A program made the translations under genes and the position numbers. From Paraglomus brasilianum (lineage: Eukaryota), in the NCBI GenBank assembly GCA_910592345.1, contig CAJVPI010000139.1, positions 1 through 50,091 on the forward strand: a stretch of DNA of 50,091 nt, read 5' to 3'. How positions within the stretch are numbered: the stretch's first letter is position 1; every line of letters begins with the position of its first letter. Below are positions 6,635-30,310 of the stretch, piece by piece. The notes under the pieces were generated by a model. That model had not been told where the DNA came from. It saw only the letters and a list, made by a program, of their open reading frames with translations, and ran no database searches.

Positions 6635-9156
6635 ATGTAACATGTCTTCCATATGTTCTTGCACCTTTGAAAAGCGTTTGTTTGTAAATTGGTTCAAGGT
6701 AACAACTGTTTGATCTGTTTTATAGGTCTGGTAGCGCTGTTCAACTTATTAATCCCAACTCGGAAGTTGCCCGACGGGGGCAGGCTCTGCAGCTCAATAT
6801 AACAGCAGCGATCGGTTTAAAAGATGTAATCAAGTCAAATCTAGGCCCGAAAGGAACAATAAAAATGTGAGTTGAACTTTCAATCCCGGTGATAGCTTTT
6901 GCTTCTTAGCAGCTTACTATCATAATATATAGATCTTCACATCCTTTTATTTAATTCAATGAATCGGTAGAATTTTACCTGATAGACAGACCTTGACATT
7001 CACTATAAATATGACATTTAATTATCGCTGATTTCATAAGTGCTGGTTCCATTATTGTATTGTGCTGACGGAAATTCCGCAATAAATAGGTTGGTGGATG
7101 GAGCAGGAAATATCAAACTTACCAAGGACGGAAAGGTGCTTTTAAGTGAGATGGTGAGTATCTCGCTGGAATAATAATAGGATTTAATTCCTTAATTAAT
7201 AATTCATTCCGACAGCCTAAAATTAATCAAACAAATATCTCAGCAAATACAAAATCCCACGGCTGCAATGATAGCTCGTGCTGCTACCGCCCAAGATGAG
7301 ATCACTGGAGACGGCACAACGTCTATCGTACTGCTTGTTGGAGAACTAATGAGACAATCGGAGAGATATATATCTGAGGGCCTACATCCTAGAATCATCA
7401 CAGAAGGGTTTGATCTTGCCCGGAAAGAAGCTTTAGCGGTAATATATAGCCTCTTCTTTCTCTGTTCTCCGACCATACACGTTTTCACTATAACATATTA
7501 ATGGGTTTTATTATTATTTTCAACACAGTTTCTTGATAAATTCAAAGTCGAACGACCAATCGACCGCGAATTGTTGATCAACGTTGCTCGTACTTCCCTC
7601 CGTACCAAAGTTCACTCGAGCCTTGCCGATCCGTTAACCGACGCTGTGGTTGATGCTGTGTTGGCTATTAAACATGAAGGAGAGCCGATAGATTTGCACA
7701 TGGTTGAGATTATGAAGATGCAACACAAGACAGCGATAGATTCAAGGTTAATCCGTGGATTAGTGATGGATCATGGAGCGCGTCACCCTGATATGCCCAA
7801 GCGCGTTAAAGATGCATATATTTTGACTTTAAATGTTTCTTTGGAATATGAAAAGAGGTAACACTGGTTGAAATGCTTGAAGGATAAGAAAGAAAACTCG
7901 TATGTGTGTCATACTTGGAACTAAATCTCTGTGTATTAAAACAGTGAGATCAATTCGGGATTTTTTTACTCGTCGGCTGAACAACGGGAAAAACTTGTCG
8001 AATCGGAACGTAAATTTACTGATGAAAAAGTTAAGAAGGTTGTTGAATTGAAGAAACAGGTCGTTGGGGACTCGGGAAAAGGCTTTGTTGTGATTAATCA
8101 GAAAGGAATTGATCCATTGTCTTTGGATATCCTATGTAAAAATGGCATTCTGGCTCTAAGACGTGCCAAGAGAAGAAACATGGAAAGGTAATGATAGACA
8201 TTCCATATAATTATATCAGTAAGGGAACAAATATCAATAAGACATATCCTAACTTTTTTTTTCTTCAACTCGTACCAGATTGCAACTTGTCTGTGGAGGT
8301 GTCGCCCAGAATTCGGTTGATGATCTTACGCCTGATGTGCTTGGCTATGCTGGGCTTGTATACGAGCATGTTCTTGGAGAAGAAAAGTTTACTTTCGTGG
8401 AAGACGTCAAAGACCCTAAATCAGTTACCCTCCTAATAAAAGGTAAGCATATTTCAGTGATCGCGTGTTGCTTCACGCTTGCTAATCAATTGTTGTTTTT
8501 TTTATAAACCTAGGCCCGAATGCTCACACTATTGCTCAGATTAATGATGCTGTTCGTGATGGTCTCCGAGCAGTCAAGAATGCAATAGAAGATGCTTCTG
8601 TAGTTCCTGGCGCGGGTGCATTCCAAGTAGCTCTATCGGCTCACCTAACGAAATATAAAGATAGCGTAAAAGGTCTCGCAAAAATGGGTGTCCAGGCATT
8701 CGGGGATGCAATGTTGATTATTCCCAAGATATTAGCGCAGAACGCTGGACATGAAGCACAAAAAACGATGGTGGCATTGCAGGCAAGAGCATAAGTTACA
8801 CATACAGGCAGAAGCTTTGAGTTTGTTTCGTATTCTTTTCTGACAGGAAATCAACGATTATCTCTCCCACATAGGAAGAGCATGCTGAGGGCCATATTGT
8901 CGGTGTGGATCTGAAGACTGGAGAAACTCTTTATCCTGTTACAGAAGGCATCTGGGATAATTATCGGGTAGTGCGACATATGTTGCATTCATGGTATGTT
9001 AATGGATGTTAATTGTACGGTTCTATGTTGAGCTATTTACTCACTTTTATTTATTTATTATTTATTAGCTCTGTGATAGCCAGTAATTTCTTGCTAGTAG
9101 ATGAAATGATGCGAGCTGGAAGATCAAGTCTAAAGAATGACCATGTTGGCAATTAA
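6635..9156 (+). CDS. CCT6: T-complex protein 1 subunit zeta (chaperonin CCT6), multi-exon
   Basis: Signature motifs [74 protein letters not shown]. The ATG is probably split by an intron (AT 6635-6636, G 6726). One GC-AG intron at 8783-8874. Confidence 0.96.
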
Positions 9157-11624
9157 CTAAAATGAAAGTGTATTATCCACGGCTAATTGAAGTTCTGCGT
9201 TCTTTGTTAGAAATCCCAGCGTATGTCGGACGCAAAACGTGTGTTGCTAACTAATAAAGTATATGTCTTACTATATACAACTTGTGTAATAAATGGTCAC
9301 CATACGAGCCTATTCTTTATGTGTTTTGAGATGCATCAACGCTATTTAGTAGGTGCTCTTTAATTCCACTTGTCTAGTTAAGAGAGGGTCGGCATATTCG
9401 CCAATCAGGTATATCCTTAAAAGGTTATTTCGACCAAATATGGTATATCGACCATTGGATCCATCAAGCCGCTATGTGGGATTACTCCTTTTTACCAAAT
9501 TTGTATTTGCAATTTCCCAATTCGACTGGCTCGATAAACTGGTGAGAACGCAAGTTTCATGTTAATCAGGCCACAGACAAAAGAAAAAAGGAGACACATC
9601 CCCCTTACTATTACCAACATGGAAAGTGGGAAAGAAAAGAACAGTTAGTTTCTGCTTTTGGTAATCATTAATGGATATCAGCCAAATCTGGTATCTCCCC
9701 TTCATTAAATCCATCCCTTTCTCAATTTCCTTTTTCGCATACATGTACTGTGGTTGAGGCATTTGCTAGGTATTAACCAATGAGGTAATACCGAGAGGAA
9801 TCTTCGCGATATCTGAAACCTTTAAAAGATTTCTCAAGCTAATGCAGGAGAGCATACACAATGATTGACGACATACACATGTGCTGTGCCATTGCAACCT
9901 CAAAAATTGATATACTAGTCTCTTTTCATATAATAATTTCCATATACGGTCGAAGCTCGTTGTTGTATATGAAAATCCATATATGACGCCAATCATTTAC
10001 AATATAAACAGTAATGACGTAAACGCCGAGGACATTGTGCAGGCGCTATGCATACGACACACTCTTATCTTTCCACTGTTTACTCATGCTCTCCTTGAAT
10101 CCTTGCCTATTTAGTGAAATTCCGCATTAAGTCTTTAATTGCTGATCATTTGTCTAATAACAATTGATCATTCCTAGTTTATGTGTAAAAAGCTTCTTTA
10201 CGGGAAGAAAGGGCACCATTTTCTGGTAAATCAAGCGTGAAAGAATCTATCGTCTAAGTTACAAATAAAAAAACCCATGAACGCCATTAATAAATACTTT
10301 CTAGAAATCAAACGCTTTTAGGCGAAAAATTCGATGGGCGAAAATGATAAGGGTGTATGCAATAATTGCATAAGGCGTTTTGGAAAAAAAATATAGTTTT
10401 GGCAAATGATCAGATGATCGGTTCATATATGGATTTTCATATGGATTATATGTTTGTAATACTACGGATATCGTACCCCCAGTTATATAGCACGGGTTAC
10501 ATACTAACATGTATGATTTGTAATATGTGAAACTGAAACCTTTACAATTACAATGGTATATTGAACATAATTGTGCATTATTCTCTATTGATACAGTTAA
10601 TTTTGTTTATAAGGATCTAGACTGATGATGCTTATAATAACAATAACCACCTGTGCTTTATATATATTCTCAAATAATAAATGCTGCATATAGGGACCGC
10701 TAGTTATAACGACCGATTTGCTTTGCCCGAGGTGCTGTATGTAAGTTATCCTATATAGCCACCATCAAATAAGTCAATAGCACAAATTAGCTCGAAGAGT
10801 AAAATTTAATGACAAAAATAAGAAGATTTAATGTTGTGGCAGTTTGTTGATGAATGGTCACAAAAGCTGCAATACCTATATATATACATATTAAAAACAG
10901 AGATTTGAGAAGAAAAAGTCGCTTGAATTGTCTTTTAGAAAAAATATGCAAGCTTACTATTACATTTTGATTATGTAAGAAGTTTATCAAGCACTCATTA
11001 CTGGAAACGGATTTCTGTGCCCTGCATGTTTGAATGTTTGAAAGTTTCCCATTCGGGATGTTGCAGGGGAAAAAACAAATAAACATTTATAGTTTATCGA
11101 GCTAATCACTAACGTTATTTATGCAATGATTTGTTTTTTATCATACAGCTCAAAAATAGGTAAATAGAATGACCGTATCTGATTTTCAAAATGAGATCAG
11201 CTCGATGAACTGGTGAGAACACATAGGAATAAAGCGTTAGAGGTGGAAAAAAAGTACAACTATTGACGTATTGTATTCCACCTTCGGATATTTCACATTC
11301 CTTATAGAAGGCTTGCAAATTAATCCGAAATAGGCAGATAATATCATGACAGTATGTTTATTACTGTTATGGTCGGTTCGAAAGCTTGTGTCATATTACA
11401 CGAAAATGCATCTTCCCATAATAATCAAATTTTTCCCATCAATAAGGCTAACTGGTATCAAATGATGTGCTTGTTACGATTGCACTACTTTTAGTAACGT
11501 CATAATCTGTACGTTTTTGTCAAATTTTTCAATCCCGTTTAATTTTTGTGTAGCCTTATTGAGAGATATAAACTTCGTGAAAATAATGACCCAATTTCCT
11601 CTCAAGCTTCTCGACACTATCACT

Positions 11625-13543
11625 ATGTCTGGTGTATATTTCAAAATCAAAAAACACTGCTACATTCTCCGTCAACCGAACAAAAGAACAGTCATAGAAA
11701 AACCAACGTCAGAACAGATACTGAAAATACTGGGGGATTGTGTCCTTAAAAATAGTTCGCATGACCCTTGGAAAGTCTTCAAAAAACTAATGATGCAGTT
11801 TCTTGAAGAAAGCGCGTTGAAACAATTATGGCGTAACCAAGAAATCAAAGCTGAATTCAGGGGTCTTGTGGAAGATGCTTCAAAAAAGGGGGGGATCCGT
11901 ATTGTATTTGACAAACTATGTCAAAATAATCCCGGTAAGCGTGAGTTACAAGTATCTGCGTTTTAGCCTACTCTGGATTCATGTTGATTAACGTAAATCT
12001 CCGTTTCTCAACAAGTAGCCCTAGTAGCCCCCTCTCAAGTTACTTCCGAGCAGGGTAATAATACTCATATTAATATCACGTGTTTGGTGGTACGGATTTG
12101 TTAATGACAATCTTCCCAATATCTAAGACGCAAGTGACGAATGGGATTCTAATCCTATGTCTGGAGATGACAGAGGTAATTATAATAGTAAGGCATTTGT
12201 CACTTTTTAATTTATAAAGACATATAAATTCTTCCTATTAATAAGGCAACCGCCAAGAATTCGGCACCATGCCCGAAGCTTTGCTTGCCGAACAGAACAC
12301 GGGTAAGTTTAATTTTTAATTCATATCAAACGTTTAGAAATATCGATTAATTAAAATTTCCATTTCTCAACAAGTAACCCAAGTAGCCCACCCGCAAGTT
12401 ACTTCCGAACATATGGGTAAGTTGATGTTAGCCCATGTAATTGGTACGGATTTGTTAATGGCAATCTTCCCAATATCTAAGACGCAAGTGACGAATGGCA
12501 TTCTAATCCTATGTCTGGAGATGTCAGAGGTAATTATAATAGTAAGGCATTTGTCACTTTTCAATTCATAAAGATATATAAATTCTTCCTATTAATAAGG
12601 CAACCGCCACGAATTTGGCACCATGCCCGAAGTTTACTTGTCTGCCGGACAGAATACGGGTAAGAGCTTAGTTTTTTAACAGACTTGAGTTCATATCATG
12701 TGTTAGGCATATTAATTAAAGTAAATCTCCATTACTCAACAAGTAGCCCAAGCTTGCCATCAATTTACATCCGAACAGAATATTAATATTGGTAAGACTT
12801 TTAAATTGATGTTCAGCTCATCTCACATATTTAATGGTACGGATTTGTTAATGTCTAAGACGGAGGTGACGAACGGCTTGTGTCCATGGGTAATTATAAT
12901 AATAATAGTAACGCATCGCACTTTTCAGTTTGTATAAAGATAAATTACTAATGTAAAATTTTCTTGTTCATAAGACGCAAATGGCATGAGGTTCTATAAT
13001 TACGGCGGTGCATTTAACGAAGTCGTTCCTGACATGGGTAAGGGATTAGTTTTTTAGCAGACTTCAAATGTTTAGGCATATTGATTAAAATAATCCCCAT
13101 TACTCAACAAGTAGCCCAAGCTTGCCATCAATTTACATCCGAACAGAATAATAATACAGGTAAGACTTTTAAATTAATGTTCAGCTCATATCACATATTT
13201 AATGGTACGGATTTGTTAATGTCTAAGACGTAGGTGACGAATGGCTTGTGCCCATGGGTAATATAATAGTAATAGTAACGCATTGCACTTTTCAGTTTGT
13301 ATAAAGATAAATTACTAATGTAAAATTTTCTTATTCAGAAGACGCAAATGACATGGGGTTCTATTATAACGGTGATACATTTCACGAAGTTGGCTCGTCT
13401 GTGCCTGCCGAACAGAATACGGGTAAGAGTTGAGTTTTTAGCAGAATTGTGTTTATATCAAATGTTTAGGGATATTGATTAAAGTAATAAATCAACAAGT
13501 AGCCCAAGCTCGCAATCATCAATTTACATTCGAACAGGACTAA
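11625..13543 (+). CDS. Micro-exon array gene, paralog A: diverged HMG-box-like N-terminal domain plus acidic repeat tail
   Basis: Exon 1 11625-11934, then exons 12016-12054, 12128-12175, 12246-12302, 12375-12416, 12482-12529, 12600-12659, 12744-12791, 12860-12889, 12975-13037, 13112-13159, 13228-13257, 13342-13422 and 13500-TAA 13543. All 12 internal exons are 3n, phase 1, stop-free and bounded by AG/GTAA. Confidence 0.75.
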
Positions 13544-13720
13544 TATGGGTAAATTTTAGGTTATGTTCAACTCATATCACTTGTTTAAAAGTATGTTAAT
13601 ACAATTTTTCCCATTGCCTAAGATGTAGATGACGAATGGCAATCTGGTAACTATAACAGTAAAGCGTTTGCAACTTTCAGTTCATTTTATTAATGTAAAT
13701 TTTTTCTATAAGCCAAATTA
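12000..13720 (+). repeat. Tandem array of about 5 degenerate units (~350-400 bp), each containing three intron+micro-exon pairs
   Basis: Recurring anchors tcaacaagta(g/a)ccc (~12008, 12367, 12736, 13104, 13492), ctaaga...gacga(a/c) and taag(g/a)c...gggtaag. Confidence 0.9.
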
Positions 13721-14186
13721 TGGCTAAGTAGAATCAAAAATTTAGGACTGGATTTATTAGCATACATTTCCATTCTTGACAACATCCGCAACGCTGAAAA
13801 CCGATTATGATGTGGGTGGAGTATTTACGGTTTACAGGAGCTAGGCTAAGTGTAAGAGCATATGCTCATACGTTAGTTGCGGATCATATAGAATGAAGAG
13901 CTTTCCAAGCTGACTTGTAGGAAAAATTTTGGTTATTAAAATTTTTTTCAACCAATTTCTTTTTGCACATTTTTATTGTGAATCAATAATTTTGGACGTC
14001 TAGCTCAGAGACAATTATACTCCCTTCCAAATTATTTCCGGATCAGCAAATCTACTATTAAAACATATAAAATTCGATATTTTTCAAAAGCCTTTTTCGC
14101 TCACATTTTGTAGAAAACTGCTACATGGTTTTGAAGCTGGTTGATCGTGTTTTATAATTTTATTTATTATGTTTTACTAATTGATC

Positions 14187-14223
14187 GGCAGGGGTGGTCC
14201 TAAATTTTTGGCAGGGGAGTGTA
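14187..14223. mobile_element. Solo Tc1-like terminal inverted repeat fragment
   Basis: The reverse complement reads TA-CACTCCCCTGCCAAAAATTTAGGACCACCCCTGCC, resembling a Tc1/mariner end next to TA. No partner was seen. It sits where A/B downstream homology ends. Confidence 0.35.
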
Positions 14224-15759
14224 CGTTTAATTGTCTGCTATCAAAAAATTAAGAACACCATCATGATGTAGCAGCAGTACGACTCTACGGACGGTACTTG
14301 CAAAGTCAACGCATCTTTCAATGCTACTGGTGAATGATAAAATGTAAAATTTCGCCAATTATCGTAAATTTCTGATAGGTAAAACTGTTGGGGCAACATT
14401 AACTGGCAAGGTGATGCTTAACTGTTTTAACGGATTAAACCTCCTACATACGAAAATTCAACCGAAGCTTATTATCAATGACATACATTATTTTGCATGA
14501 CGAAGGTCAATTACCGACTTTAATATTTTCACTGACTTGTCCCATATCTGGTAGATTGGATTCTCTGGACTAGAACCAATGAAAGCGTTAAAACGTGTTC
14601 GAATGCGCAGCCAGCCTTACTTATTGTTTGACTACATAAAGGAGACCCACCAGATTATTCATAACTATGTCAGCTTTGCTTAACGTCGTCTGAAACATTC
14701 TCTCCAAATAACCAAATACCAACTGGTCGTTCTCTTCATTTATCTTATCCAGTCGTCCTATTAGTGTATCTTTCCAACGGGCGATGAGCGACTGCGCATG
14801 TGTTGATGAAGGATGAATGGATGTAAGACGCGCAAGCGAAGAGCCGTCAACAGACAAAAAGAGATTTCTTTTTCGCGTAGAGTGCAATCGCTATTATGCA
14901 ATAATAACAAAATTAGAATTTTGAATGTTGAAACAGAAGAAAGGTATCAAATAAAAAACATATCTTGAGACATAATTGAATGGATTATTGGGAATTGTAA
15001 ACCCATATTCGATTAATAGTCTAAAGTTATCATGCGGCCCATAGTTTATAAAGGCCATTGATCAAGGTTTACAACCGTTAGAAGAAAAGAATCAGGAACT
15101 GGAACGTCAATATCGACTATAAGTACCTCTTCACCCTTCTTGATGGTTGTCATTGTCGTAATTTGATAACAATTAGTTTGTTGATTGAACTCTCCCATAA
15201 TCTAAAAATGAGTAACCTCCTTTAGCATGATATTTGGCATTCATCAAAAACTCACAAAATCCGCTCATACTTTGGCACAACTAGAATGATTGAGAAAATC
15301 TAGCACGGAGCTATTGCGATGTTTTCATCCGAGGAAAAGGAGAATTGGCAGTTCGACGCTTTGAAATATATACAGCGCATGTTTACTTAAATGACGGTAG
15401 CGAAAAAATTGATAAGAAATTAAACAGTGTTCATTATTGTCAATGTGGAGAGATTAATTCATATGTGCAAGGGGTTGAAACCACACTGTCAGAAAGATAA
15501 AAACACATAATTAGTGAGTTTGTTGTGGCAGTACATCAACTTTAGCGCCATCATAAAACGTAATCTTTGTTAGACTAATTTGCTTAACGTTTAACGTCTT
15601 TACGTATAGCTCGTAGACGTGGCACAATTTGAGATAGCTACAATCCAAAAAGTGCATACACAGTATAAGTTAAAATTTTTATTTTATTCCAAACTAGATA
15701 CTAATTGATAAATATATTATAGTTTATATATAATGCAGTTTAATTTCCTGTTAATTTAT

Positions 15760-16200
15760 TGAGATCGTCCAAAGCATTTGTCTCGTTTTCGGTATTGACG
15801 TGCTTGTTATTTTTATGAAGCATTCGATAGACTTTCCCCCTTACTTTCAATGCAAATGCATTGGTGGTTCAATCTCCAACGATTTATTGAGATCGACTAA
15901 TGCATTGTCATATTGATCAAGCATTCGATAGACTTCCCCCCTTACTCCCAATGTAGACGCGTTATTTGGATCAACCTCCAATGCTTTATTGAGATCAACT
16001 AATGCATTGTCATATTGATCAAGCATGAGATAGACTTTCCCCCTTACTTCCAATGTAGACGCGTTATTTGGATCAATCTCCAACGATTTATTGAGATCGA
16101 CTAACGCATTGTCATATTGATCAAGCGAGTGATAGACACGTCCCCTTACTCTCAATGCAAATGCACTATTTGGATCAATCTCCAATGACTGTTTAAGATT
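15760..16200 (-). repeat. 102-bp (34-codon) near-identical TPR tandem repeats, about 4 copies
   Basis: Repeated tttattgagatc(g/a)actaa(t/c)gcattgtcatattgatcaagc at 102-bp spacing (~15883, 15985, 16087). Confidence 0.9.
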
Positions 16201-18488
16201 TTTAAGAGACTGTCTATATTCAGATTGAAGCCTGTAATTATCCCCAAGTATTGCCCAAGCTCTGGCGTTTTTAGGATTATTCTTGATAGTCTCATTTATA
16301 TAATGATAACATTTTTGGTAGTCTGAACTTTGCATATATGCATAAGCAAGATCACACTGAATGGTAGAACTATTAGGATAATGCTCAAGTGCTCTTTCCA
16401 GCCAGGTTATTGCATCTCTGTATCTTCTATTATTCAGAGCTTTCTTGCCTTGTCTGTATGTAGGATGCTGTCCTTTTGGTCTTCTAATTCTTTGCACAAG
16501 AGTTTTCTTAGGTTTCATTTTTAGTAAATATAAAAACTTTGTTTTCATTATAGAATATTCCTCAGAATCACTATCATCCTGGTTTTCTACAGCTGCTGTA
16601 AAGTTTTTTGTGTTGTCTTTTGGTGTAATATGTCCATTTTCAACAAACTTTTCATGCAATGCTTTATAGATTGGTGAACTTTCCAATGATTTAGTATCTT
16701 TGATTTTGATTCCCCTGTTACAATAGAAACATTTTAATGAATAATAATTGAATTTCATAAATGTCTCTAATGCTGAATAACTGATTTTGTGTCCACATGG
16801 TAGAATTCTAAAATCATCTGTAACCCTCTGTGTAAAGGGACATGTGAGGTGATCTGCTACCATATCCAAAATTAACAAATCATTTGGATTGGAATCAAGC
16901 AATTCCTCAGGATTCTGTTCTAGCACTGCTTTTTGCTTTGACATTGATGTTTCTAATACTAATGTGGGCATAGTAAATTTATATTTTATATTAATGTATT
17001 CTATTGCATCCTGAAGTTTTCTCTTATTAGCATTAGCTCCATCCAATTCTGCAAAATGTTCAATATGCTGGGATAGATCTACTTTGACAACTGAAAACGT
17101 ATTAGTAACAGTATCTGGTTCCCTGTTATAAAGTGTCATCAAGACTTCCATTGCTTTAAATTGAACATTTTCTGTTGATACAATATCAAGTGTCAATTTT
17201 GCAAGATAATAGCAGTGAGCCAAAGTACTAGTATTCTTTGTAGACAATATGAGTTTTTGAGCAATTTCTAATATGCCATACAATAAAGAGTATGGATATG
17301 ATACAGGGGCATAACCACCAATATGGACCAGAGTGTGCTTTAAGTTAGACTTAAAGGTATCTGCCTCTGATTCTGATTTTACAGCAGCTTTGGCCCATTC
17401 TTGTTCTCCAAATCTCCATAAATCTTTAATAATCATCAATTCACCTTTGAAAACTAAATCCCTATTGATTGGTATATCTGACCATTCAACAAATGCTTGA
17501 TATGTGCTGTATAAATATCTCCAATCCTTGTACCAATAGCTAATAGGAAATTTGGGACTTAGTGCTTGTTGAATAATATTATATGTCTCAAGGGAAGTAT
17601 TGTTATCAAATGGTGTTTGAATGTTTGCCATAATGTTAGCCATACCAGGTAAAATTCCAACTAAGCTAGTGAACACAGTTTTCAGTGCTTTTATAATCTT
17701 AAATAAGACCGTCTCATCATCATGCATTGCATGAAGAGTATCCCGAAGATGTATCAGTAAGAAATCAATATTGTAATTCTGGCAATTGATACCTTTCGCC
17801 AAATTAGAATATAAGTCATATGCAGTTCTTTGTTCATTGTATGGATTGTACTCCGGTTTAATGTTTTTGTTTAGGCCATTCTTTAGTGTTTCAGCATGCC
17901 GTTGATGAAAATCATTCAAAACAGCAAGATGTCCATACAAGGACTCGCGGAATTCCTTTGTCATTATGAGTGGTCTCCTGCCCCATGCTTCCAATGCCAA
18001 CACATATGTCCTGAGATGTAGCTCCAACTCCATACCAGTTGTTACCTTATGTTTCATATATGAAATGTTTGCAGTTCCTATTGTCCTCAATATATTTTCC
18101 AATTGATCATCATCCAATCTATCTTCTGTTGTCAATAACAAGGTATGCAGTCTGATGAAGTGATGTCGTCTGTCATTGTTGTTGGCTATTGATTCTAAGC
18201 ATTTGATCAACTGTTCCCTCAATTGGATTGCACTCAGGTTTTCGTCAGATTGGGTTACATCATCGATCTCAATGTCTTCAATTTGTTTGGCTTTGCCCTT
18301 GTTTTTCGTTTTCGAGAATGACGATTCACCATTGTTCTGACATAAAAGTATGGAATAACAACATGTTAGTAAAATGTGAACTATGCGATAAACTATTGCA
18401 TTTCTCATACTGTATTAGTATTGCTTCTTTCGTACGGTTTTAATAAATGTTGCGACATGTTCACAAAACTTACTATGGCCTCTGCCAT
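15847..18488 (-). CDS. Large protein with helical N-terminal region, degenerate RING/U-box-like motif and C-terminal TPR array
   Basis: 853-aa ORF. The likely true start is a 15-nt exon 18488-18474 (MAEAI|gtaagt) spliced to 18336 (cag|NNGESS). Contains LTCPFT...LPCGHKIS...KCFYC and TPRs of the type ALVDLNKSLEIDPNNASTLEVRGKVYLMLDQYDN. Confidence 0.85.
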
Positions 18489-18791
18489 CTCTGGAAAATC
18501 GCTATAACTAACTAACTGTTTGTATGCATGGCACTATAATTATAATGTCACACGACTGTACAGCCAACCAATCAATCTAATACGGTCAGAAAACTCGCAT
18601 TTTTTCAAGTTAACCATTCATTGACCAAGCAACAATCTCCCAATCTCCCAATAATAGGGATTGCTTGGTAAATTTTATTCAAACGCTTGCAATAAGTAGC
18701 ATTGTGACGGGTCCGGCTCATCGACAATCATTTCGCCGACAGACATAAATTTCATCGAAAACCAATGATAAGTGCGATAAATAATGTGTCA

Positions 18792-18845
18792 AGTGAAATG
18801 ACTGTCGGTGAAATGTACTGTCGGTGAAATGATTGTCGGTGAAAT
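18792..18845. repeat. Short minisatellite with ~15-16-bp unit (tgtcggtgaaat), 3-4 copies
   Basis: gtgaaatgactgtcggtgaaatgtactgtcggtgaaatgattgtcggtgaaat. Confidence 0.7.
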
Positions 18846-19144
18846 AAATGCCTCCCGTTCTGCTGAGAGCGCCATATGCTTAGCCAGGGGCGAAGAGTTG
18901 AGAATCAAATTCGAAATCCTTGGGATAGTTTTTAGAATAATATCAACATTCACATCCCAGCCGTGCAATTTGCATACATCATCTTGGTTATGTCATTATC
19001 ATGTACATGACTCTAAGCTTCTGATTGAAGACTAGAGACTCAACAGTTAGTCTGTTTAAATAATTTTTGCAATTTACAGGAAATCACTGTCCTGTTGGTA
19101 CAAAGACAAATTGCTGCACTGACGCTGTTGTCTTTTCTGATGTG

Positions 19145-19555
19145 TCTGACAAAACTATAAGCAAGAAGACAAAGTTTTACTTTATTTTCGAAAATTTTAT
19201 CCATACTAATACGTAATATAAGTTTCGCTACTTCATCGAACTACAGCTTTGAAACGACAACAGGATTGAATATATTATTATTATTTCTGAAAAATACAAT
19301 CAATTAGCTTCAAACGGTACCAAAATCATTGTGGGCGTATATGAAAATGTAATGTGTTCACTTCATCGAACTACTCTTCATTACAGTAAATAATTTAAAT
19401 TTCACACTATTTTTTTTCGAAAAATACAATCAATTAGTTCCAAACCGGTACCAAAATCATTGTGGGTTACATAGTACGTATTAGTATTGATAATGGAGAT
19501 TTTCAAAAATAAAGGGGTTTCATGTGTTTTACTAGTCTTCTTATAATTTTGTCAG
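19145..19555. mobile_element. Foldback/MITE-like element with ~70-bp imperfect inverted ends and two internal direct repeats
   Basis: ctgacaaaactataag...ctttattttcgaaaat...atactaatacgta pairs with tacgtattagtat...attttcaaaaataaag...cttataattttgtcag. Internal repeat cttcatcgaactac...aaaaatacaatcaattag...cggtaccaaaatcattgtggg occurs twice. Confidence 0.6.
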
Positions 19556-20052
19556 GGGGTGTATTATGTAATATTACCATAGAATAAACAAATTCTTATT
19601 CTCATACTACAGTACTATGGGGCATACTGCAACAAAACTAGACAAAGTAAACATGACGCCGCAGAGGGTTCAATGCCATAGATTGGTCTTCTTTAAGTCG
19701 CTCTTCCTATTTTCGCTTTCTACCTTTTAAGTGCAAAAATTCAAATTAACAAAATCAAGTTGATTAGCAATAGCGGCGCAAAAACACTAATAGTACTATA
19801 AAACCTTTTTTTTGGCTGAGCAGTATCTACGTCTAAACAAGCCGATTCTTAAAGCAAGTTACGCGAAATTCTCCTATAGTAGATAGGTTGAGTTTGTGCA
19901 ACACGAGCACTGGTATTAATATTAAGAGTTTGGGTACTAATAATTTTCACGATATAATATTGTTAAAGAAAACATTAAACAAACCCATGCGAAACACGTT
20001 TTTTTTTTGTTTAACGCACGTTTTGTTTACAATTTGCACAGAAACGACTGTT

Positions 20053-21299
20053 TGAGGTGGTTCAAAAAGTTCTTGCCGCTTGGCTTTATTTTATGATACT
20101 ACATAATAAATTTGAAACTAATTAAGTCAATCCTTCAAAATAGTCTCCTTCTAAATCTATGCATCTTTGTAGCCTCTCCCGCCAAATTTCAAAGGACTTG
20201 TGATATTCCTCTTGTGATATACCATAAACAATTGCCTGAACAGCCCTAGACAAATTTACAATATCATTATACTTCTTTCCAGCAAACACTTTCTTAATTT
20301 TTGGAAATAGAAAAAAGTCGCACGGAGCCAGGTCTGGACTGCATGGTGGATGTGGCAGTAACCGCTCTTTCTTCAAATAGGCTGCAACATTAGATCTGCA
20401 GTGAGGCGCAGCATTGTCATGATGCAACATCACATCGCGGACGGTTGTTCCTCCCCTAATTTCCTTATATTTTTGGAAAACAGAGGGTAGAATTTGATTA
20501 GAATAGAGCTCACTCAGTTACTGTCTGACCTTCAGGCACAACAATTTGCGCGACTACTCCATTTACTGAGAAAAAATGCAAAACATTCGTTTTTTACAAT
20601 TTCGGCAGTCCGCACGATTGTTGGCCTGTTTTCATCCTTCCCAATCCAAACTTTATTCTGATTTTTACTGAAAACTGTGAAAAAGTGTATCCACGTTTCA
20701 TCTCCAGTAATAATATTATTGAAGCCCTTATCCAAAATTGATAAGAGCTGTCTTGAAACTTTCACCCGTCGCTTCTTATGTTCTTCCGTTAGAAGGTGCG
20801 GAATCCATTTAGCAGCAACTTTACGTAGCTCTAATTCTTTATGTAAAACGGTACAGACGCTACCGACTGAAATTCCTGTTTCATTTGCTAACCCTTGTAT
20901 GTTTTTATTAGGGTCACATTCTTTTGTGTCACCGCTTCGCAAGGCCTCCCAGATCGAGGTTCATCTTCTAAGCGGCCTCTTCCATCATTAACCCAGTGTC
21001 GGACTTTGCGTAATGACGGTGCTTTATGTCCACAAGCAATAGTTAATTTTCATAAATTGTACTAACGTCTGTACCGTTTTGCCATTCGACGAATATATAG
21101 AAACGATATTGTTTGTGCGAAAATTGAGCCATTGGTTTTAACGAACAGGATTCAAATGAGGATATCTCAACAACAAACCAAATTTGGTTTGTTTTGAAGA
21201 TCAAAAACTTTAGTTTTTATTTGGTTAGTGTCGATTTGTCTCACACTGACAGCCTGTAAAATGCAAGGCCCGCGGCAAGAACTCTCTGAACCACCCACA
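20053..21299 (-). mobile_element. Full-length but inactive mariner (DD34D) transposon
   Basis: TIRs ggtggttcaaaaagttcttgccgc (20056-20079) and gcggcaagaactctctgaaccacc (21272-21295), about 1.25 kb apart, enclose a transposase remnant. Confidence 0.9.
20122..21132 (-). pseudogene. Mariner transposase pseudogene with several frameshifts
   Basis: Motifs KWIPHLL, IITGDETW, HHDNA and PDLAPCDFFLF are split across frames. The ATG at 21132 is followed by an early frameshift/stop. Confidence 0.9.
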
Positions 21300-24200
21300 T
21301 AAACCAAATGTTTTAAGTCTACGGCTATGATGTATTAGTATTGTTTAATAAACGCTCAATCGGCGTTTGATAGACCGAAGATTGATTATAAAAAATAATC
21401 CAGTTCAACCACAATCCACAAATTTACAATAGATTAAATTACAATCATTAAATAATTACTATCAAACGCATTTGTTCCATAAAAAACAAATCTACAAAAA
21501 TGCTCACTTCTGCCGAATTTTGCGGGCTATTAATTTCGGTCTCTCGCTGCATTCGACAATATAAACCAAAAGCTTGAAACAATGATTCAGGCAGTTGAGC
21601 CAGAAATTTTTAAAGTAAAATCTAAATTCACCAAACTACCCAGTAGCAAATTACTTACCAGACATAAAAAATCTACGTATGAAAAGATTTTAAGAATTAT
21701 TTAATAAAAGATTTTTTGAGCTGGACTCGGATTTTTCGTTTAACAGAATGGCAATTAAAATCCATGAATTACGCGAAGGAAAAAGCGTTGCTGTCTCCAC
21801 TTTAAAAAGTTTCTTACCGTCCGGGGAAGAGAACATCCAGAATCGATCGATAAGAACAAAGAAGCAGAGAATAGAAATGGTTGATAATAATAGAATATTT
21901 TATTAGAGTGATCAAAGAAATAGATTAATGGCTTAGGGTCCGGGTATTTTTCTCTCATGCAAGCGCTCTAGTGAGTCTTTTGGGTTTTATTGACAAAATA
22001 TGTATGCAACTTGCAAATTGTCCCAACTTAATGAAAAAAAAAAGGGTTCTAGTTATCCATTCATACTATCGTGCTGCCATATAATAACGAAATCACGTAC
22101 AATATGCAAACTTGCATTGCGCGTATTTGTACAGACAACGAGACCTGTCTCGAAAAAGGATTGTTTCACTTTTTAAAATACATATGAGAAACAAAATACT
22201 GTACATATTATGTATAAAACGTTATCAGCAACAATTAGACAAACTGACTTGATGCTTGTCAATTGTTCCAGAACGTGACTTTTTTTATAAAGCATACTTA
22301 CATGGCTCATATGCAAATAAAGAACTATAAAGCCACCGAATTGGATTTAAATCAAATTTGATTTCAGTCGGAACATTAACACAATTATATTTATAACAAT
22401 AGAGGAGGAGTATTCCTGTATTGAATTACTTATATGAAACTAATATACAGTATATCAGATCCACTATAAAACCTAAAAATTACAGTGCAATCAGAAAAAA
22501 GAACAATTGCTTCTTACATTTTTAAAATAAATATTACCCAACACTTGAAGCTTACCTCAGGAAAGAAAAAATCACTGTTAATTAATTTAATGAAACTGTC
22601 AAAAGATATATAAGCAGTCGTAGTTTCCCTAGAAATCAGCATTTGCAATTTGTTCTTATAAAATTAGAATACTTATATATTCAATAAAAATCGTATTTAA
22701 TATTTAAATTAATTCCGGTATACGGAGTCGAACTTGCCTTCGATTTCGTTGGAATCTTTAACGTTAAAATTATTACATAATTAAGTGCTTAGTGTAGATA
22801 CATTCCCCGATCCATAGGCTTTTGAACTAAGAAATAAACGTGACATCCGAGATTAAATAATAATCTAGGGACAGCGTATACAAGACCGATCTAGCAACGT
22901 CAGTATTTGAACCCCAATTTTAAGGTCACTACTGTCATTATTATTATAGAAATGGCTAAATTCCAAGGTCGATATACGAACTCTCTCCCGCGTGTATTGA
23001 TCAGACAGTAGACTTGTGAATACTTTTCCTTTTTATCCTTTTTTAATAAGGACTAGACCACAAAACACTAACACTAGAAACCCAGATCATAATATGTTGG
23101 TTGTCACAAGCCATTTTTTTATATTCCTTGGTTGCTTTGACAAAATCTTTGACATCCAAATTCTTGTCAATGGTAGTTTTTAACGTGACAAATATTGGGT
23201 CCTTTTAGATGATGGTTGTTCTAAAATCAACGGCAATAACTAAATTTAAAATAGATTTGGGATTTCCTTTCGATTGAACGTAGAGGAGATTTTATTTGAG
23301 AAGGCTATAATAGTAACGTCTTAGTCTTTTGAGTTACAATTGATCTATTAGCCGATTACCAATTAATTCATGAAAAATTTCGGGATCGTGCCTAGATAGG
23401 CTTGAATTAGTTAATCAACCGTAATATAAACGGGTTCCCATAAATAGAACACAAACATTCCAGAATAACGCTTTACAAACTGCTTCAACGCATTTTGGGA
23501 AAGCATCAACAGTTCGTGGAATTATAATATCTGTTAAGCCAAGCATGCATATACATATACGATGCTGCAAATAGTGATAATAAAAGTTCTGAAAGAATAT
23601 TAGTCCCATATTCAACTAATTATGAAGTTAGATAAAAAATTGTTTACCATTTGTTTGGATTGCGTATATTTCAACCTATGAATATCTGGACGTGCGACGA
23701 TTGGTAAGGCAAGATATGCGCTGGCGAGTAGCACTTTTGAGCAGTATTCTAGCTTTGATAAGTCGCTCTTTCTTTTACGCAATATCACATCTCCCGTTCT
23801 CACGTATTAATACTTCTTGACTGATTGAAATAATAGTTATTTTTGGACCACTCTTTGTTTGAATTTGGGCAAGTTTTTTTAACTTGTCATATGCTACAGA
23901 TGAACCTTCACCCCTAAATTATGCGATGTAAATTACTATTACAGAAAATATGTAATAATAACACTGTAGTCAAACGTCCGATATATTTGGAAAGTTCACA
24001 CTGACCTGAGAGGGTTACTACAAAGAGAACCCCCATCACTTAGTATTGCTTAAGACTAAAACTTATTGTCCCCTGACATACGGCGTACATAACTTTTAAT
24101 GTTATTGTATCCAGAAGATGGCTATTACATTCATATGAATATTCTAGTCAACGACTTCTCCAGGATTGAGAATCAATGCCTTGAGACAAGTAAACATATG

Positions 24201-24746
24201 AATATTCGCTGCTCGAAATGATGTTTGGTAAATAGTTGAGGCTAGTAAATCATTTCTTATAGACATTAACCGCAATAGCAATAGCGTGATCCCTTGCATA
24301 TAAGGTTAGTCATAATATCACGATATGCATAAACATGGGGCTAATCGTCGTATCTTTAGTCGGTAACTAACTGATTACAGCTTACTAAGTTTGACATCCA
24401 CCTCGACGAATACCTGAGTAGACTGCCGTTTCGAGCTTAATGCATAGACATGGAGTGAGATTATTAATTGCAGTGACCAGTAACACCATTTTTAAAATAT
24501 CATATAACGCCGTGTGACATAAACTATAAATAAAATTATACAAATATATCAAAATAGCGAACAGATTTCTCTTATACTGGAAATTGGTTATGTTAGGAGG
24601 TGTTATTCCGTATATAATAATAAATAAAGTTGCACTCGAAGCTATTTTGTCAAAATTTTTAGTCTAGTTAGGAACAATTGAATTTTTGTGTTGCTTTTGA
24701 GAGCTATAAATAAACCCCAGCTTGTTAAGCTTCTGCATTATCACTT

Positions 24747-26941
24747 ATGTCTGATACAATTACTTTCACGATAAAAAAAAACGGATACATTCTCCGTCGG
24801 GAAGTATTCATAAAAAGGCCCACCGAAAACCAAATACGTGAATCAGGTTTGGTTCAAGAAGGAAACCGCAATCCGGGAAAAGTATTCGAACAACTAATAA
24901 CGGGGGCTGTGAGAGATCTTGGAAAAGCAGCAATCGACGCTTTATGGCGTGACCCAAAAATCAAAGCCGAATTCAAGCGTATTGTGGAAGAAGCTTTAAA
25001 AGATAAGGGGGAACTCCGTATTGTTCATGACAAATTGAACCATAGTTCAGAAACAGGTAAGCTTGAGTTACATGTTCAGACTTATCACAAGGATCTGCGC
25101 TTTAGCATACATTAATTTTTATTATATGCCTAACGCGTAGATCACAACCAACAACTACGTGACAGTTACCCGCCCCTTCCTGGCAGACAGAACACGAGTA
25201 AGCAGATGTACTTTATTCATATTGAATGTTTAGGAATATTGATTAAAGTAAAATTTTCATTTCTCAACAAATAGCCCAAGTTGGCTACCCTCAAGTTACT
25301 TCCGAACAGGGTAAAGCGTTTTGGATTTGGGTTGATGTTCAGCTCCTATCAAATGTTCAGATGTATGCGTTTGTTAATGCGATCTTTTCGATTACTTAAC
25401 AACAGTACACAGCGAATGGCATATTAATATGCCCGGAGAAGTCACGGGTAATTATAATAGTAACGCGTTTGCACATTTTAGTTCATATAAAGATAAATTT
25501 ATTAATGTAAATTATTTCTGTAATAAGACCACCACTTCTATCATAACGGTATCATACCTGAAGTTTACTCGCCTGCCGGACAGAATACGGGTAAGAGTTT
25601 AGTTTTTAGCAGACTTGGGTTCATATCAATGTTTAGGCATATTGATTAAAGTAAATCTCCATTACTCAACGAGTAGCCCAAGCGTGCTACCATCAATTTA
25701 CATCCGAACATGATATTAATATGGGTAAGACGTTCAAGTTGATGTTTAGCTTATATCACATGTTTAATAGTACGGTCTAAGGCGTAGGTGACGAATGGCA
25801 TAAATTACTAATGTAAAATTTTCTTATTCATAAGACGCAAATGGCATGGGGTTCTATAATTACGGCGGTGCATTTCACGAAGTCGTTCCTGACGCGGGTA
25901 AGAGTTTAGTTTTTTAGCAGACTTCAAATGTTTAGGTATATTAAATCTCCATTACTCAACAAGTAACCCAAGTAGCCCACCCGCAAGTTACTTCCGAACA
26001 GGATATTAATATGGGTAAGACTTTTAAATTGATGTTTAGCTCATATCACATGTTTAATGGTACGGATTTGTTAATGTCTAAGACGTAGATGACGAATGGC
26101 CTATGCCCATGGGTAATTATAATAGTAATAGTAACGCATTGCACTTTTCAGTTTGTATAAAGATAAATTATTAATGTAAAATTTTCTTATTCATAAGATG
26201 CAAATGGCATGCGGTTCTATAATTACGGCGGTGCATTTAACGAAGTCGTTCCTGACATGGGTAAGGGATTAGTTTTTTAGCAGACTTCAAATGTTTAGGC
26301 ATATTGATTAAATAATCCCCATTACTCAACAAGTAGCCCAAGCTTGCCATCAATTTACATCCGAACAGGATATTAATATGGGTAAGACTTTTAAATTGAT
26401 GTTTAGCTCATATCACATGTTTAATAGTACGGATTTGTTAATGTCTAAGACGGAGGTGACGAATGGCTTGTGCCAGTGGGTAATTATAATAGTAATAGTA
26501 GCGCATTGCATTTTTCAGTTCGTGTAAAGATAAATTACTAATGTAAAATTTCTTATTCATAAGACGCAAATGGCATGGGTTTCTATAATTACGGCGGTGC
26601 ATTTAACGAAGTCGTTCCTGACATGGGTAAGAGATTAGTTTTTTAGCAGACTTCAAATGCTTAGGCTATTGATTAAAATAATCCCCATTACTCAACAAGT
26701 AGCCCAAGCTTGCCATCAATTTACATTAGAACAGGGTATTAATATGGGTAAATTTTAGGTTATGTTCAAGCTCATATCATTTGCTTAAAAGTATGTTAAT
26801 GCAATCTTTCCCATTGCCTAAGATGTAGATGACGAATGGCAATCTTTTCTGTGTCCGGTAACTATAACAGCAAAGCGTTCGCAACTTTACGTTCATTTTA
26901 TTAATGTAAAATTTTTTATTAATAAGCCAAATTATGGCTAA
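24747..26941 (+). CDS. Micro-exon array gene, paralog B
   Basis: Exon 1 24747-25056, then 25141-25197, 25275-25310, 25406-25447, 25528-25590, 25677-25724, 25835-25897, 25964-26014, 26083-26112, 26198-26260, 26334-26381, 26450-26479, 26564-26626, 26700-26747 (all 3n, phase 1), 26823-26857 (35 nt) and terminal 26927-26941 (PNYG*). Exon 1 is homologous to A (YILR, LWR.xxIKAEF, RIVxDKL). Confidence 0.78.
25200..26930 (+). repeat. Tandem array of about 5 three-exon units homologous to 12000-13720
   Basis: Same anchors as array A. Long near-identical blocks, e.g. 26180-26370 vs 12955-13145. Confidence 0.9.
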
Positions 26942-29178
26942 GTAGAATCGAAAATTTAGGACTGAGTTTATTGGCATATATTTTCATTCTTTACGACACC
27001 CGCGGCAACGCCGAAAACCTGATTATGATGTGGGTGGAGTATTTACAATTTACAGGAGCTAAGCTAAATTTAAGAGCATATGCTCATACGTTAGTTACGG
27101 ATCATAAGCTGACTTGTAAGAAAAATTTTGGTGGATATTTTGATATTAAAATTTTTTCAACCAATTTCTTTTTTTTTTCGCACTGCACATTTTTATTGTG
27201 AATCAATAATTTTGAACGTCTAGCTCAGGGACAATTACATCCCCTGCCGGGATCAGCAAATCTACTATTAAAACATAGAATTCGATATTTTTCAAAAACC
27301 TTTTTCGCTCATATTTTGTAGAAAACTGCCAACAAATTTTACATGGTTTTGAAGCTGATTGATTATGTTTTATGAAAAATAACATAAAATTTTATTTATT
27401 TTGTGGTTATGAACCTGCAGCGTAATGTTTTTACCTATCAATAATTCTCGATTGTCGATTGTCGTGCCAACTACAGCGGGGGAGCAGACAATAATTGGCA
27501 CTAGGAATTTAGCTACCTTCTCACGGAGTGGCTCCTACTAATAGTTAAATATCTGATTACAGTTAGTGACCTTTAACACTAGGCTTTTCCTACTTACAAC
27601 TCACTGCACCGAGGAGTAGACACTCATCCTAGAAAGTAATTGTCCTCGAATACAATCACGGTTTCTATCGTAGGATTAATTCGATAGTCTCCCGGTTAAT
27701 GTACACTGTGCTTCATTTATAACAAATAATAATGCGCATCGACATAAACAATTAATTTATCATATTTGCCACGGGAATAATCGCGGCGATTATTCTTAAT
27801 CGATATAGGATTAGCAGTTTCACTAATACCGATATTTTATCAGGGAATAAATCATTGACAAAATATTTCAGAGTAAATAAAATAAACACTTGCAAACATT
27901 GAGAACACCTCGAACGCGAAACTAACTAAAATCTATGCTGCTTTATAGGACTAATTAATCTATTTTTAGCAACATTTATTATTGATTATTTTACTATATT
28001 GTTATCAGTATGCGCTGCGTCTATCCGCCATTTCAGCAGAATATTCTTTCGAGTTACCATATGAATTTACTTGACATTCCGTTGCAAACGAAATGGAGAT
28101 TGATGAATCGACAAAGACATGTTTCAATTCTCCAATCGTCTAAAGCTTGCATACTCCTCAGTGAATATGGCAGCAGAAGAATACATCGAGTTGAACATGG
28201 TTTGACAAGCGCAAATTTTCCCGCAATGTGAAAAAAAAACTCGAATTCGATACTTTTAAATGAAGTTTCAGAATCTAAGGAATTTACGGATATAAGATAT
28301 GTTTCCCCGATATAATTCGACGTTTAGAGCACAAACTTTATTAACAGAATATATTACTAAAGTCATACATATTAATATGTTCTTTGGCCCGTTGTCTAAT
28401 ATACAATAGCGAAATAAATGTACTGGGTAATCGGGACATGTTACACGGCGAAAAATACATCGAAATTTTACCCCATGTTGTCTAAAAAGGAATGCGGCAT
28501 GTCGCCGATTATCATCCGATTGTTGGGCAAGACTAAGCCAAATTAAGCGTAATATGGCAAGTGCGACGTAAACAAGGACAAACTAAGACAAATGCAGGTT
28601 TTGTGGGTTCACAAGTCATTTACATCGTTCCACCAAATTGTGGTACGAGTTGCCCGCATTGTGAGTGTGCATTTACATTTGTATCAATAACTACTCCAGA
28701 CATGCACACTGTTGACGGGGAATATTCGACGTGCATACAGAGAGTCAATGCCTTGAGACTAGGAAACATATTATGAATTCAATGCTCGTTTGGTAAATAG
28801 TTGAGGCTAGTAAATAGACATTAACGACAATAAAGTGATGCAGAACCCTTGCATTTGATATAGGACTATCCGAAACATTAAAAGATCTTCAAGCTAATGC
28901 AGGAGAACATACATAAATGTTATAAATAACGACCTTTTTTTAACTTGCGAAGAATAAATTACGCTTATTTTCAATGCACTATTTTAAATAATAGTATGTT
29001 CAAAACACTCCCAATTCGCTACCATGTGCGACATTCAAATGGACAAATCTGGTACAAGTTACTTCTTGGTGTAAAGTCGCACTCGAAGAAAACATAGCCG
29101 CTTTTATCGAATTCAGTCAACAATTCAATATTTGTGTTTAAAAAGACCAATCGTCTAGGTTTCACATCATCGCTTGAC

Positions 29179-30310
29179 ATGTCTGACCTCATTTCTCTTC
29201 CAGACGGTCAAGAGTTCCTTCTCTATCGCTGTGGTCGACAGCCAGTGTGTATAAAGAAGCTAAGTTGGGAGTACCTAGTCCAAAGTAAGACTTACGAGGG
29301 AAAACCGGGTGATGCCAAGAAGATCCTCACCGAAACGGTACGCCTGGGTCTCCAACATGAGGGACTCGAAGAGGAAGCTGTCACTAGGCTCGTAAACTGT
29401 TTATGGAAAAAGAAAGCGATTCAAAAAAAATTCAAGGAGATAGCCAGTGACGTTAAGACGTCTATAAAACGTAACAAGGGGGCTAGTATTATCTTGGATA
29501 GCCGAGTTTCTGCAAGTAGTTCAGAAGCGGGTAAGCACATTGGATTTTGAGTAGATTATTACAAAGGATCTGCACGATTTTATTGATTAATATTATTAAT
29601 AACATTATTAATAACATTAACATTCATGTTCATCACTTAACAAGTCGACTATAACCAACTAGTCGATTACAACCAACCACTACCACCACCTCTTTCTTAT
29701 GGTTATCCACCAACCATCGGACCAAACTTTGGTAAGCATTTAAATTTTTTAGGAGACTTTTAGTTCATATCAAACGTTCAGGAATAATGATTAAAGTAAA
29801 TATCAACAAAGTAGATCAACTTTTCTATAACATACGTCATCATTTACATCGGAACAGGCTACAGGTAAAGCGTTTGGGATTTTAGGATAATGTTTAACAG
29901 TAGCCATAGATGTTTCTTATCATATATGTCAAGTTTAAGGTAAGATTATTGATATCGATTTTTCTTATTAATAATACGCAGATCTGCGTGTTCTGGTGTT
30001 GGTATTATTAATAATATTATGTCAGAATGGTGTTGTCATACCTGAAGTTTACGGTAAGCGTCTAGTTTTTTTAGTAGATTTAGTTCGTATCAAATGTTTA
30101 GGAATATTAATTAAAGTGAATTACCATTAATCAACAAGTAGACATTAATCAACAAGTAGACAACGACGCTCCACTCCCATCCGAACAGGATGATGTTAAT
30201 ATGGGTAAGACTTTTAAGTTGATGTTCAGATGTTTGATGGTACGGATTTGTTAATGCAATCGTTTTCCATTACAATAGTCGATGACGAATCCAGAGATGG
30301 GCAGTCATAA
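29179..30310 (+). CDS. Micro-exon array gene, diverged short paralog C (3' structure uncertain)
   Basis: Exon 1 29179-29530 (FLLYR...LWKKKAIQKKFKEIASDVK, ending G|gtaagc as in A and B). Candidate exons 29645-29731 (87 nt), 29812-29864 (53), 30026-30053 (28), 30139-30204 (66) and 30279-TAA 30310. Introns align with array introns (e.g. ggaatattaattaaagt...tcaacaagta). Confidence 0.55.

Follow-up and report, generated by a model that had tools for sequence, protein, structure and literature searches.

Three tandem genes of Paraglomus brasilianum with a predicted HMG-box-like head and acidic tails encoded by arrays of short phase-1 exons

The window analysed here, 50,091 nucleotides (nt) of contig CAJVPI010000139.1 in the P. 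brasilianum assembly GCA_910592345.1, is intron-rich DNA (about 36% GC) of a root-symbiotic fungus and carries three neighbouring tandem genes on the plus strand, A, B and C, with starts at 11625, 24747 and 29179. On the models presented below these genes likely encode divergent HMG-box-like nuclear regulators with an acidic, aromatic, predicted-disordered tail. In each, a first exon encoding the head closes with a phase-1 donor and a read-through stop follows soon after, within the intron; all three stops (11966, 25115, 29550) are present as they had been given in the original prediction, an earlier reading of this DNA from its letters. New here are the prediction of an HMG-like fold for exon 1, the acidic aromatic tail and the probable exchange of a 3′ segment between A and B.

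Gene structure

Gene A opens with an exon of 103 codons plus 1 nt (11625..11934; public model P0008) that encodes the HMG-box-like head; an in-frame ATG lies at 11586, 13 codons 5′ of this modelled start, and the metagenome protein P0006 also uses the 11586 start. Its array (11935..13422) comprises 12 introns and 12 phase-1 exons with lengths divisible by three (3n), arranged as four units of three exon types, a, b and c. Enumeration of donors and acceptors places these exons at 12016-12054, 12128-12175, 12246-12302, 12375-12416, 12482-12529, 12600-12659, 12744-12791, 12860-12889, 12975-13037, 13112-13159, 13228-13257 and 13342-13422, and reproduces exactly the lengths that had been proposed for them (39, 48, 57, 42, 48, 60, 48, 30, 63, 48, 30 and 81 nt). 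Downstream, a fifth a-type exon of 49 nt (13500..13548) is frameshifted and contains a stop, such that it would be terminal if included; the public model skips it and ends instead (13623..13810) with a 24-nt b exon (13623-13646), an intron and a last exon running to a stop at 13810.

Gene B is built in the same way, with a head exon of 103 codons plus 1 nt (24747..25056) followed by an array (25057..26747) of 13 introns and 13 phase-1 3n exons, located at 25141-25197, 25275-25310, 25406-25447, 25528-25590, 25674-25724, 25835-25897, 25964-26014, 26083-26112, 26198-26260, 26334-26381, 26450-26479, 26564-26626 and 26700-26747. The lengths (57, 36, 42, 63, 51, 63, 51, 30, 63, 48, 30, 63 and 48 nt) agree with the earlier proposal for all but the fifth exon, which is 51 rather than 48 nt, the shorter value being the same exon with a TAG acceptor 3 nt downstream. 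The intron after this exon is 110 nt long (25725..25834) and contains what is left of a b exon: deletion has removed its donor, so that the exon now lies inside the intron with the frame intact. The probable terminal region of B (26823..26941) holds a 35-nt b exon matching the end of a Paraglomus occultum protein, and its 69-nt intron, spliced out or read through, leads in either case to a stop in one and the same frame. Past the last acceptor, a phase-1 frame stays open for 91 codons (26926-27201, plus strand), the equivalent in A being the 32-codon last exon of P0008.

Gene C has the longest first exon (29179..29530; 117 codons plus 1 nt), and of the three heads its product is closest to a full-length HMG box. 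The tail of C (29531..30310) is short and partly degenerate, with only about five exons: these measure 87, 53, 72 and either 66 or 48 nt before a final one that bears the stop; the 53-nt exon is of the a type and out of frame. Tandem Repeats Finder calls only the younger parts of the arrays as repeats, with a unit of 366-368 nt.

Short blocks that are 80-87% alike occur upstream of B and C (24168-24250 and 28740-28815) and upstream of A and C (9810-9861 and 28867-28916), and may be either remnants of tandem duplication or common regulatory elements.

Splice signals and frame constraint

As the original prediction had held, each of the 25 internal exons in A and B is 3n, phase 1 and free of stops: the 388 codons read in the phase-1 frame include none, while the two remaining frames have 16 and 35. 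These exons range from 30 to 81 nt (5 of 25 are no longer than 36 nt, 16 of 25 no longer than 51 nt) and are far richer in GC than the introns of the same arrays (47.9% and 28.4%), which are 65-110 nt long. Every one of the 25 introns begins with GTAA (16 GTAAG, 8 GTAAT, 1 GTAAA), and in 24 of them a branch-like site lies at a distance of 5-36 nt from the acceptor. The 25 acceptors comprise 21 AAG, 2 TAG, 1 CAG and 1 GAG. In a-type acceptors, for example at 12741-12746 and 26331-26336, AAG and TAG stand in tandem 3 nt apart, and in two units of B the AAG is mutated and the TAG retained, such that TAG may be the true acceptor.

The earlier reading had proposed comparing exon and intron length changes modulo three, and this comparison separates the two classes. 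The count covered 23 homologous units of types a, b and c that precede the first stop, taken as 20 minimum-spanning-tree contrasts; set aside were the unique 57-nt exon, B's fused unit, the units at the ends of the arrays and the whole of C. Net changes are multiples of three in 12 of 12 exon cases and 4 of 14 intron cases (Fisher p 2e-4); counted as single gaps in homologous units, the figures are 19/23 for exons and 8/46 for introns. The exceptions to the 3n rule all lie outside the counted set (the 49-nt a exon of A with its stop, the 35-nt last b exon of B and the 53-nt a exon of C). About 100 exon substitutions have created no stop, for which the chance is about 0.025. As judged from sequence, the exon/intron anatomy of the arrays is real and is under frame constraint, and splicing very probably proceeds as modelled.

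Public gene models and relatives in P. occultum

Three public protein models fall on this contig, P0001 for B (321 amino acids), P0004 for C (202) and P0008 for A (340), and their exon choices nearly match ours: the chain that we derived for B is identical letter for letter to P0001, and P0008 holds verbatim the peptides of 11 of the 12 internal exons of A, leaving out the 49-nt exon. The annotation passage of the P. brasilianum assembly paper describes GeneMark-ES with protein hints and mentions no RNA (10.1101/2021.04.09.439159); the three models may stem from that work, and we treat them as predictions.

In P. occultum, the orthologues of B (P0002) and C (P0007) have adjacent locus tags, the pair at this locus being 7959_t and 7960_t. 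Identity between B and P0002 is 53/73 in the head and 41/73 over the first five tail exons, and the repeat peptides of B are kept in its orthologue: for 14 of 14 B exons the phase-1 frame is the one that scores best against the tail of P0002, in 9 of the 14 beyond shuffled sequences (a score reached by 5 or fewer of 300), with the c-type exons failing this shuffle test. The metagenome gene calls P0003, P0005 and P0006 terminate at the read-through stops; metagenome gene callers do not model introns. Two scans of metagenome contigs did not find the locus, and a search for RNA runs listed none, a result that is neutral as to splicing.

A predicted HMG-box-like head and an acidic tail

A likeness to HMG boxes was proposed from known features of the family before any fold prediction was made. 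The HMG box is an L-shaped three-helix fold of about 60-70 residues that binds DNA in the minor groove and bends it. Its aromatic core has a Phe early in helix 1, a Trp at the end of helix 2 and an aromatic residue in helix 3; in the six heads compared the Trp and the helix-3 Phe are invariant (6/6) and the helix-1 Phe is present in 5/6, a comparison among the heads rather than a residue-by-residue match to HMG positions. Head net charge is +4 to +6. The model of the C head (pLDDT 73) has helices at residues 24-37, 45-56 and 59-78, and in a VIA search of 48,161 chains HMG boxes take ranks 1-12 and 28 of the best 50 rows, two chains being counted as HMG from the complexes to which they belong rather than from their titles. 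The best HMG match aligns 60 of 68 residues, nearly the whole domain, at Z 5.2 and a root-mean-square deviation of 2.9. With the same model, HMG boxes occupy the first, third and fifth places in Foldseek and make up 8 of the 38 rows displayed, each at an E above 1. The model of the B head (pLDDT 70) has an N-terminal hairpin plus helices, and HMG boxes account for 14 of its best 50 VIA rows, with Z up to 3.8. By sequence, UBF1 is a weak match (E 0.65).

These structural matches are consistent with an HMG box but lie below the bar of the tool, so that the fold is likely rather than shown; we consider an HMG-type three-helix head probable on the strength of the models. Several results weigh against this reading of the head. 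All Z values are under the VIA bar of 8; the best non-HMG row for the C model reaches Z 4.5, and unrelated rows lead the list for the B model, with Z up to 4.7. Foldseek with the B model has no HMG box among the matches listed and none with E under 1. Pfam, searched at E up to 1 or 10 with the exon-1 proteins and with P0001, P0002, P0004, P0005 and P0007, returned no HMG family, and profile searches of solved structures with the heads returned no HMG. Helices 1 and 2 are shortened in A and B, so that DNA binding may be lost there. The ESM Atlas gave the C head a best feature score of 0.87 with low recognition, and P0001 no usable match. Weak sequence matches to solved structures of Nup170 (E 0.004, a helical stretch), liprin, the Hermes transposase and G-alpha were rejected as chance.

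The tail is of quite different composition, being rich in Gln, Asn and aromatic residues with almost no Lys, and its net charge is -26 in 218 amino acids in B and -25 in 183 in P0002; the combination of basic head and acidic tail is kept in both Paraglomus species. The model of the whole protein is of low confidence (pLDDT 0.39). A combination of acidity, aromatic residues and disorder typifies activation domains. A hydropathy scan, as distinct from a dedicated predictor, saw no signal peptide: within the first 40 residues the highest 15-residue hydropathy was 0.86 or less in five proteins and in the long version of A. A secreted effector was rejected as there is no N-terminal hydrophobic run, and the AGL-type proline/glycine surface proteins (PMC8786786) were rejected on composition and for the lack of a signal peptide.

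History of the arrays

The number of units varies among A, B, C and P. occultum, and the donor deletion in B noted above shows the loss of a b exon with the frame kept; the variation is at the DNA level, where duplication and deletion are directly visible. A segment at the 3′ end of A (12657..14155), comprising the middle and last units and about 400 nt of flank, has its counterpart in B at 25895..27373. Over this segment the two genes are 89-93% identical in the middle units, 92.6% in the last unit and 92.8% in the 400 nt of non-coding flank, whereas exon 1 is 65.7% identical in DNA (local alignment) and 43% in protein, and beyond the flank the sequences diverge again. In a tree of 11 units, proximal, middle and last units cluster with others of the same position instead of with those from the same gene, and the starred branches force at least three changes of gene label. 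Units have thus probably been exchanged between the gene copies A and B. As the head of B is nearer to that of P. occultum than to that of A, the duplication that gave rise to A and B probably predates the split of the species, and the common 3′ segment was probably copied later.

Could the common segment, or the unit counts, be errors of a short-read assembly? The contig is single and the tandem units are about 370 nt long, but the copies differ by 7-10% and by distinct indels, which assemblers normally resolve, and divergence resumes past the flank, such that we give this explanation very little credence.

Interpretation and alternatives

We propose that the arrays are spliced largely constitutively into proteins of 300-350 amino acids in which an HMG-like head is followed by a multivalent acidic tail, and that the tail differs in length between paralogues, between species and probably between isolates through recombination of its units; we put the probability of this reading at roughly one half. 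The history would begin with one symmetric unit of intron plus exon, amplified into an a-b-c block, which would account for every junction being phase 1 without any skipping. The likeness of the introns fits this in part: those of the a and b types are related, only 1 and 2 of 300 shuffled sequences scoring as high, and no shuffle of 300 equals the resemblance of A's first intron to the a type. Either unequal crossing-over or gene conversion would then have changed the number of units and, after the species split, copied the 3′ segment between A and B, with selection holding the frame and the acidic composition rather than single residues. Finally, the head may bind or bend DNA and the tail may serve as a multivalent activation-type domain with a strength that scales with the number of units, a functional proposal that we hold only tentatively and think somewhat more apt to fail than to hold.

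Besides the points raised on the head, other observations also weigh against this reading. The c-type introns have no detectable relation to the a or b type in the shuffle comparison. AAG accounts for 21 of the 25 modelled acceptors, whereas four housekeeping genes nearby use it at about 2 of 29, a figure judged by eye without a translation check. Among tail exons the ratio of non-synonymous to synonymous differences (pN/pS) is 0.89, or 1.05 for pairs of equal length, on few sites and not below the values for the other two frames (0.82, 0.89), and divergence is slightly higher in exons (98/918, 10.7%) than in introns (116/1408, 8.2%; p 0.048). Gene prediction in both species was probably ab initio, so that the two sets of models share a bias toward open frames, and the P0002 model reads through one donor. 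Lastly, an exhaustive HMMER profile search of 1.84 billion representatives recovered five proteins only (P0002, P0004, P0007 and two metagenome calls). As read from these substitutions and from the indels, frame and composition are kept in the tail and individual residues show no sign of purifying selection.

This last result bears on the first alternative, in which real, spliced genes have as their head an unrelated small helical domain, or else a non-binding HMG relic, and as their tail a neutral disordered spacer. The pN/pS near 1, the missing HMG signal at the sequence level, the low Z values and the unusable Atlas match are in its favour. It accounts less well for HMG boxes holding the first 12 ranks of 48,161 chains over nearly the whole domain of the C model, and for a basic head and an acidic tail being kept together in two species, and we regard it as unlikely.

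A second alternative returns to the original prediction, in which any exon might be skipped, duplicated or deleted in frame. Duplication and deletion are borne out at the DNA level; skipping is another matter, as a phase-1 unit, once duplicated, needs exons of 3n length even under constant inclusion, and the 3n pattern therefore does not discriminate. Cassettes akin to those of micro-exon genes, skipped in many combinations to give each gene a population of tail isoforms, would be in keeping with the individual symmetry of every exon; with the predominance of AAG acceptors, which are weaker, and the presence close by of alternatives that keep the frame (in the arrays 33 of 42 internal AGs do so, against 68 of 157 in a neighbouring TPR gene, copies being non-independent and no significance claimed); with the TAG 3 nt downstream of AAG in a-type exons; and with the two frameshifted a-type exons (49 nt in A, 53 nt in C), which would be tolerable if skipped and which the public models both skip. 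Rhizophagus SP7, moreover, is reported to have five transcript versions (PMC4617103). The symmetry, however, also follows from descent of one phase-1 unit together with ordinary selection on frame, introns as short as these (65-110 nt) make retention likelier than skipping, retention of an intron would give a stop or a frameshift in 26 of 26 cases, no signal peptide was seen in the hydropathy scan, and fungi are described as having comparatively low levels of exon skipping (PMC6142364). We judge the cassette explanation slightly more doubtful than a relic head with a spacer tail, and tail length is probably set in the DNA itself, as units recombine, and not through the skipping of exons. Were skipping nonetheless to occur, these genes would offer a fungal parallel to schistosome micro-exon genes on a nuclear protein. 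A combined version, in which a divergent HMG box with an activation tail of 12-13 cassettes is diversified twice, by recombination of gene copies and by combinatorial exon skipping, seems to us improbable; it would place the micro-exon-gene strategy on a nuclear regulator, giving a tunable and possibly self/non-self-related output across the many nuclei of a hypha or spore of an arbuscular mycorrhizal fungus (AMF).

According to a third alternative the tail is a decaying or non-coding repeat, and the genes make only the read-through products of 113-124 amino acids or are pseudogenes. The coding frame lacks a synonymous-site signature, units are broken at the ends of A and C, and P0003, P0005 and P0006 do stop at the read-through stops, as gene callers that ignore introns would. 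Against this, length changes are 3n in 12/12 exon and 4/14 intron cases, 388 codons contain no stop, GC is 48 versus 28%, and the peptides are kept in P. occultum, which leaves decay very unlikely. A purely non-coding satellite was likewise rejected, by the 3n bias of indels, the peptide match in P. occultum and the stop-free, GC-rich exons.

If constitutive splicing with recombining units is the correct reading, an AMF would be able to lengthen, shorten or swap a regulatory tail exon by exon, and because such HMG-like genes are invisible to Pfam, counts of HMG genes in early-branching AMF would be too low. Compact and of a size amenable to PCR, the locus would also lend itself to two questions: does the number of units determine the strength of activation, and does ectopic recombination take place in these mostly clonal fungi?

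Comparison with known systems

HMG-box factors of the MATA-HMG type resemble the genes described here in the predicted basic three-helix head of about 60-70 residues, in the invariant Leu-Trp and in the expansion of paralogues. They differ in that the present heads have no Pfam or profile match, that the helices of A and B are shortened and an extra N-terminal hairpin is predicted in B, that the tail is an exon-by-exon tandem array, and that the family was found only in Paraglomus records and metagenome proteins. HMG-box factors are numerous in AMF, with over 100 reported in Gigaspora rosea (PMC4771724), and some are reported to be induced when isolates coexist (PMC7490403).

The original prediction had drawn an analogy to the micro-exon genes of Schistosoma. 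It stands as far as the symmetric exons go (25/25), and both systems have series of short symmetric exons whose removal leaves the frame intact, as well as paralogues restricted to one lineage. It fails on exon size and on the signal peptide: in schistosomes the exons are described as mainly 36 bp or shorter and the proteins as having a signal peptide (PMC8293314), unlike the 5 of 25 exons in that range and the absence of a visible signal peptide here. The exons here are, moreover, near-copies of three types. Micro-exon genes also yield many exon-skipped transcripts and have an elevated dN/dS; on the latter point the pN/pS of 0.89-1.05 among paralogous units, on few sites, speaks neither for nor against a likeness. 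A, B and C are not micro-exon genes of the schistosome type.

The SP7-like effectors of the Glomeromycotina share with these genes imperfect hydrophilic repeats in variable number; in that family an intron precedes the first repeat and binding depends on repeat number (PMC11333574), each repeat closes with a family signature, and differential splicing of SP7 has been reported in AMF (PMC4617103). Unlike the proteins described here, in which no signal peptide was seen, SP7-like proteins are secreted, and a folded HMG-like head is not among the features given for them in the available descriptions, which also report no members in Paraglomerales (PMC11333574). Our searches turned up no sequence relationship to SP7, no SP7 sequence having been compared directly.

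Symmetric exon units are known to amplify by unequal crossing-over and to homogenize between paralogues, a process of tandem exon duplication with concerted evolution that has been described mostly in animals, and the A and B arrays appear to work in this way. A literature search, confined mainly to open texts without supplements, found no fungal exon-array family and no HMG gene with such a tail; the terms HMG, intron and tandem do not occur in the main text of a P. occultum genome paper (PMC9453076), which attests to published RNA data for Paraglomus.

Other features of the window

Between A and B, on the minus strand, lies an intronless open reading frame (ORF) of 855 amino acids (15847-18414) with C-terminal TPRs built from a 102-nt tandem repeat in 3.8 copies; the repeat runs on to 15804, beyond the stop, so that the last TPR looks broken, and a Cys/His motif in mid-protein is RING-like by eye. 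Also on the minus strand, two ORF fragments at 20122-20991 look by their motifs like a broken Tc1/mariner transposase, although Pfam has no match for them with E up to 0.01. Short repeats, both direct and inverted, at 19180-19514 and 18718-18845 (59 nt at 90%, 44 nt at 82%), with an imperfect palindrome containing a 15-nt tandem, are possibly akin to miniature inverted-repeat transposable elements. An apparent GC-AG intron, recognized by eye, occurs at 8783 in a chaperonin gene that we take to be CCT6-like.

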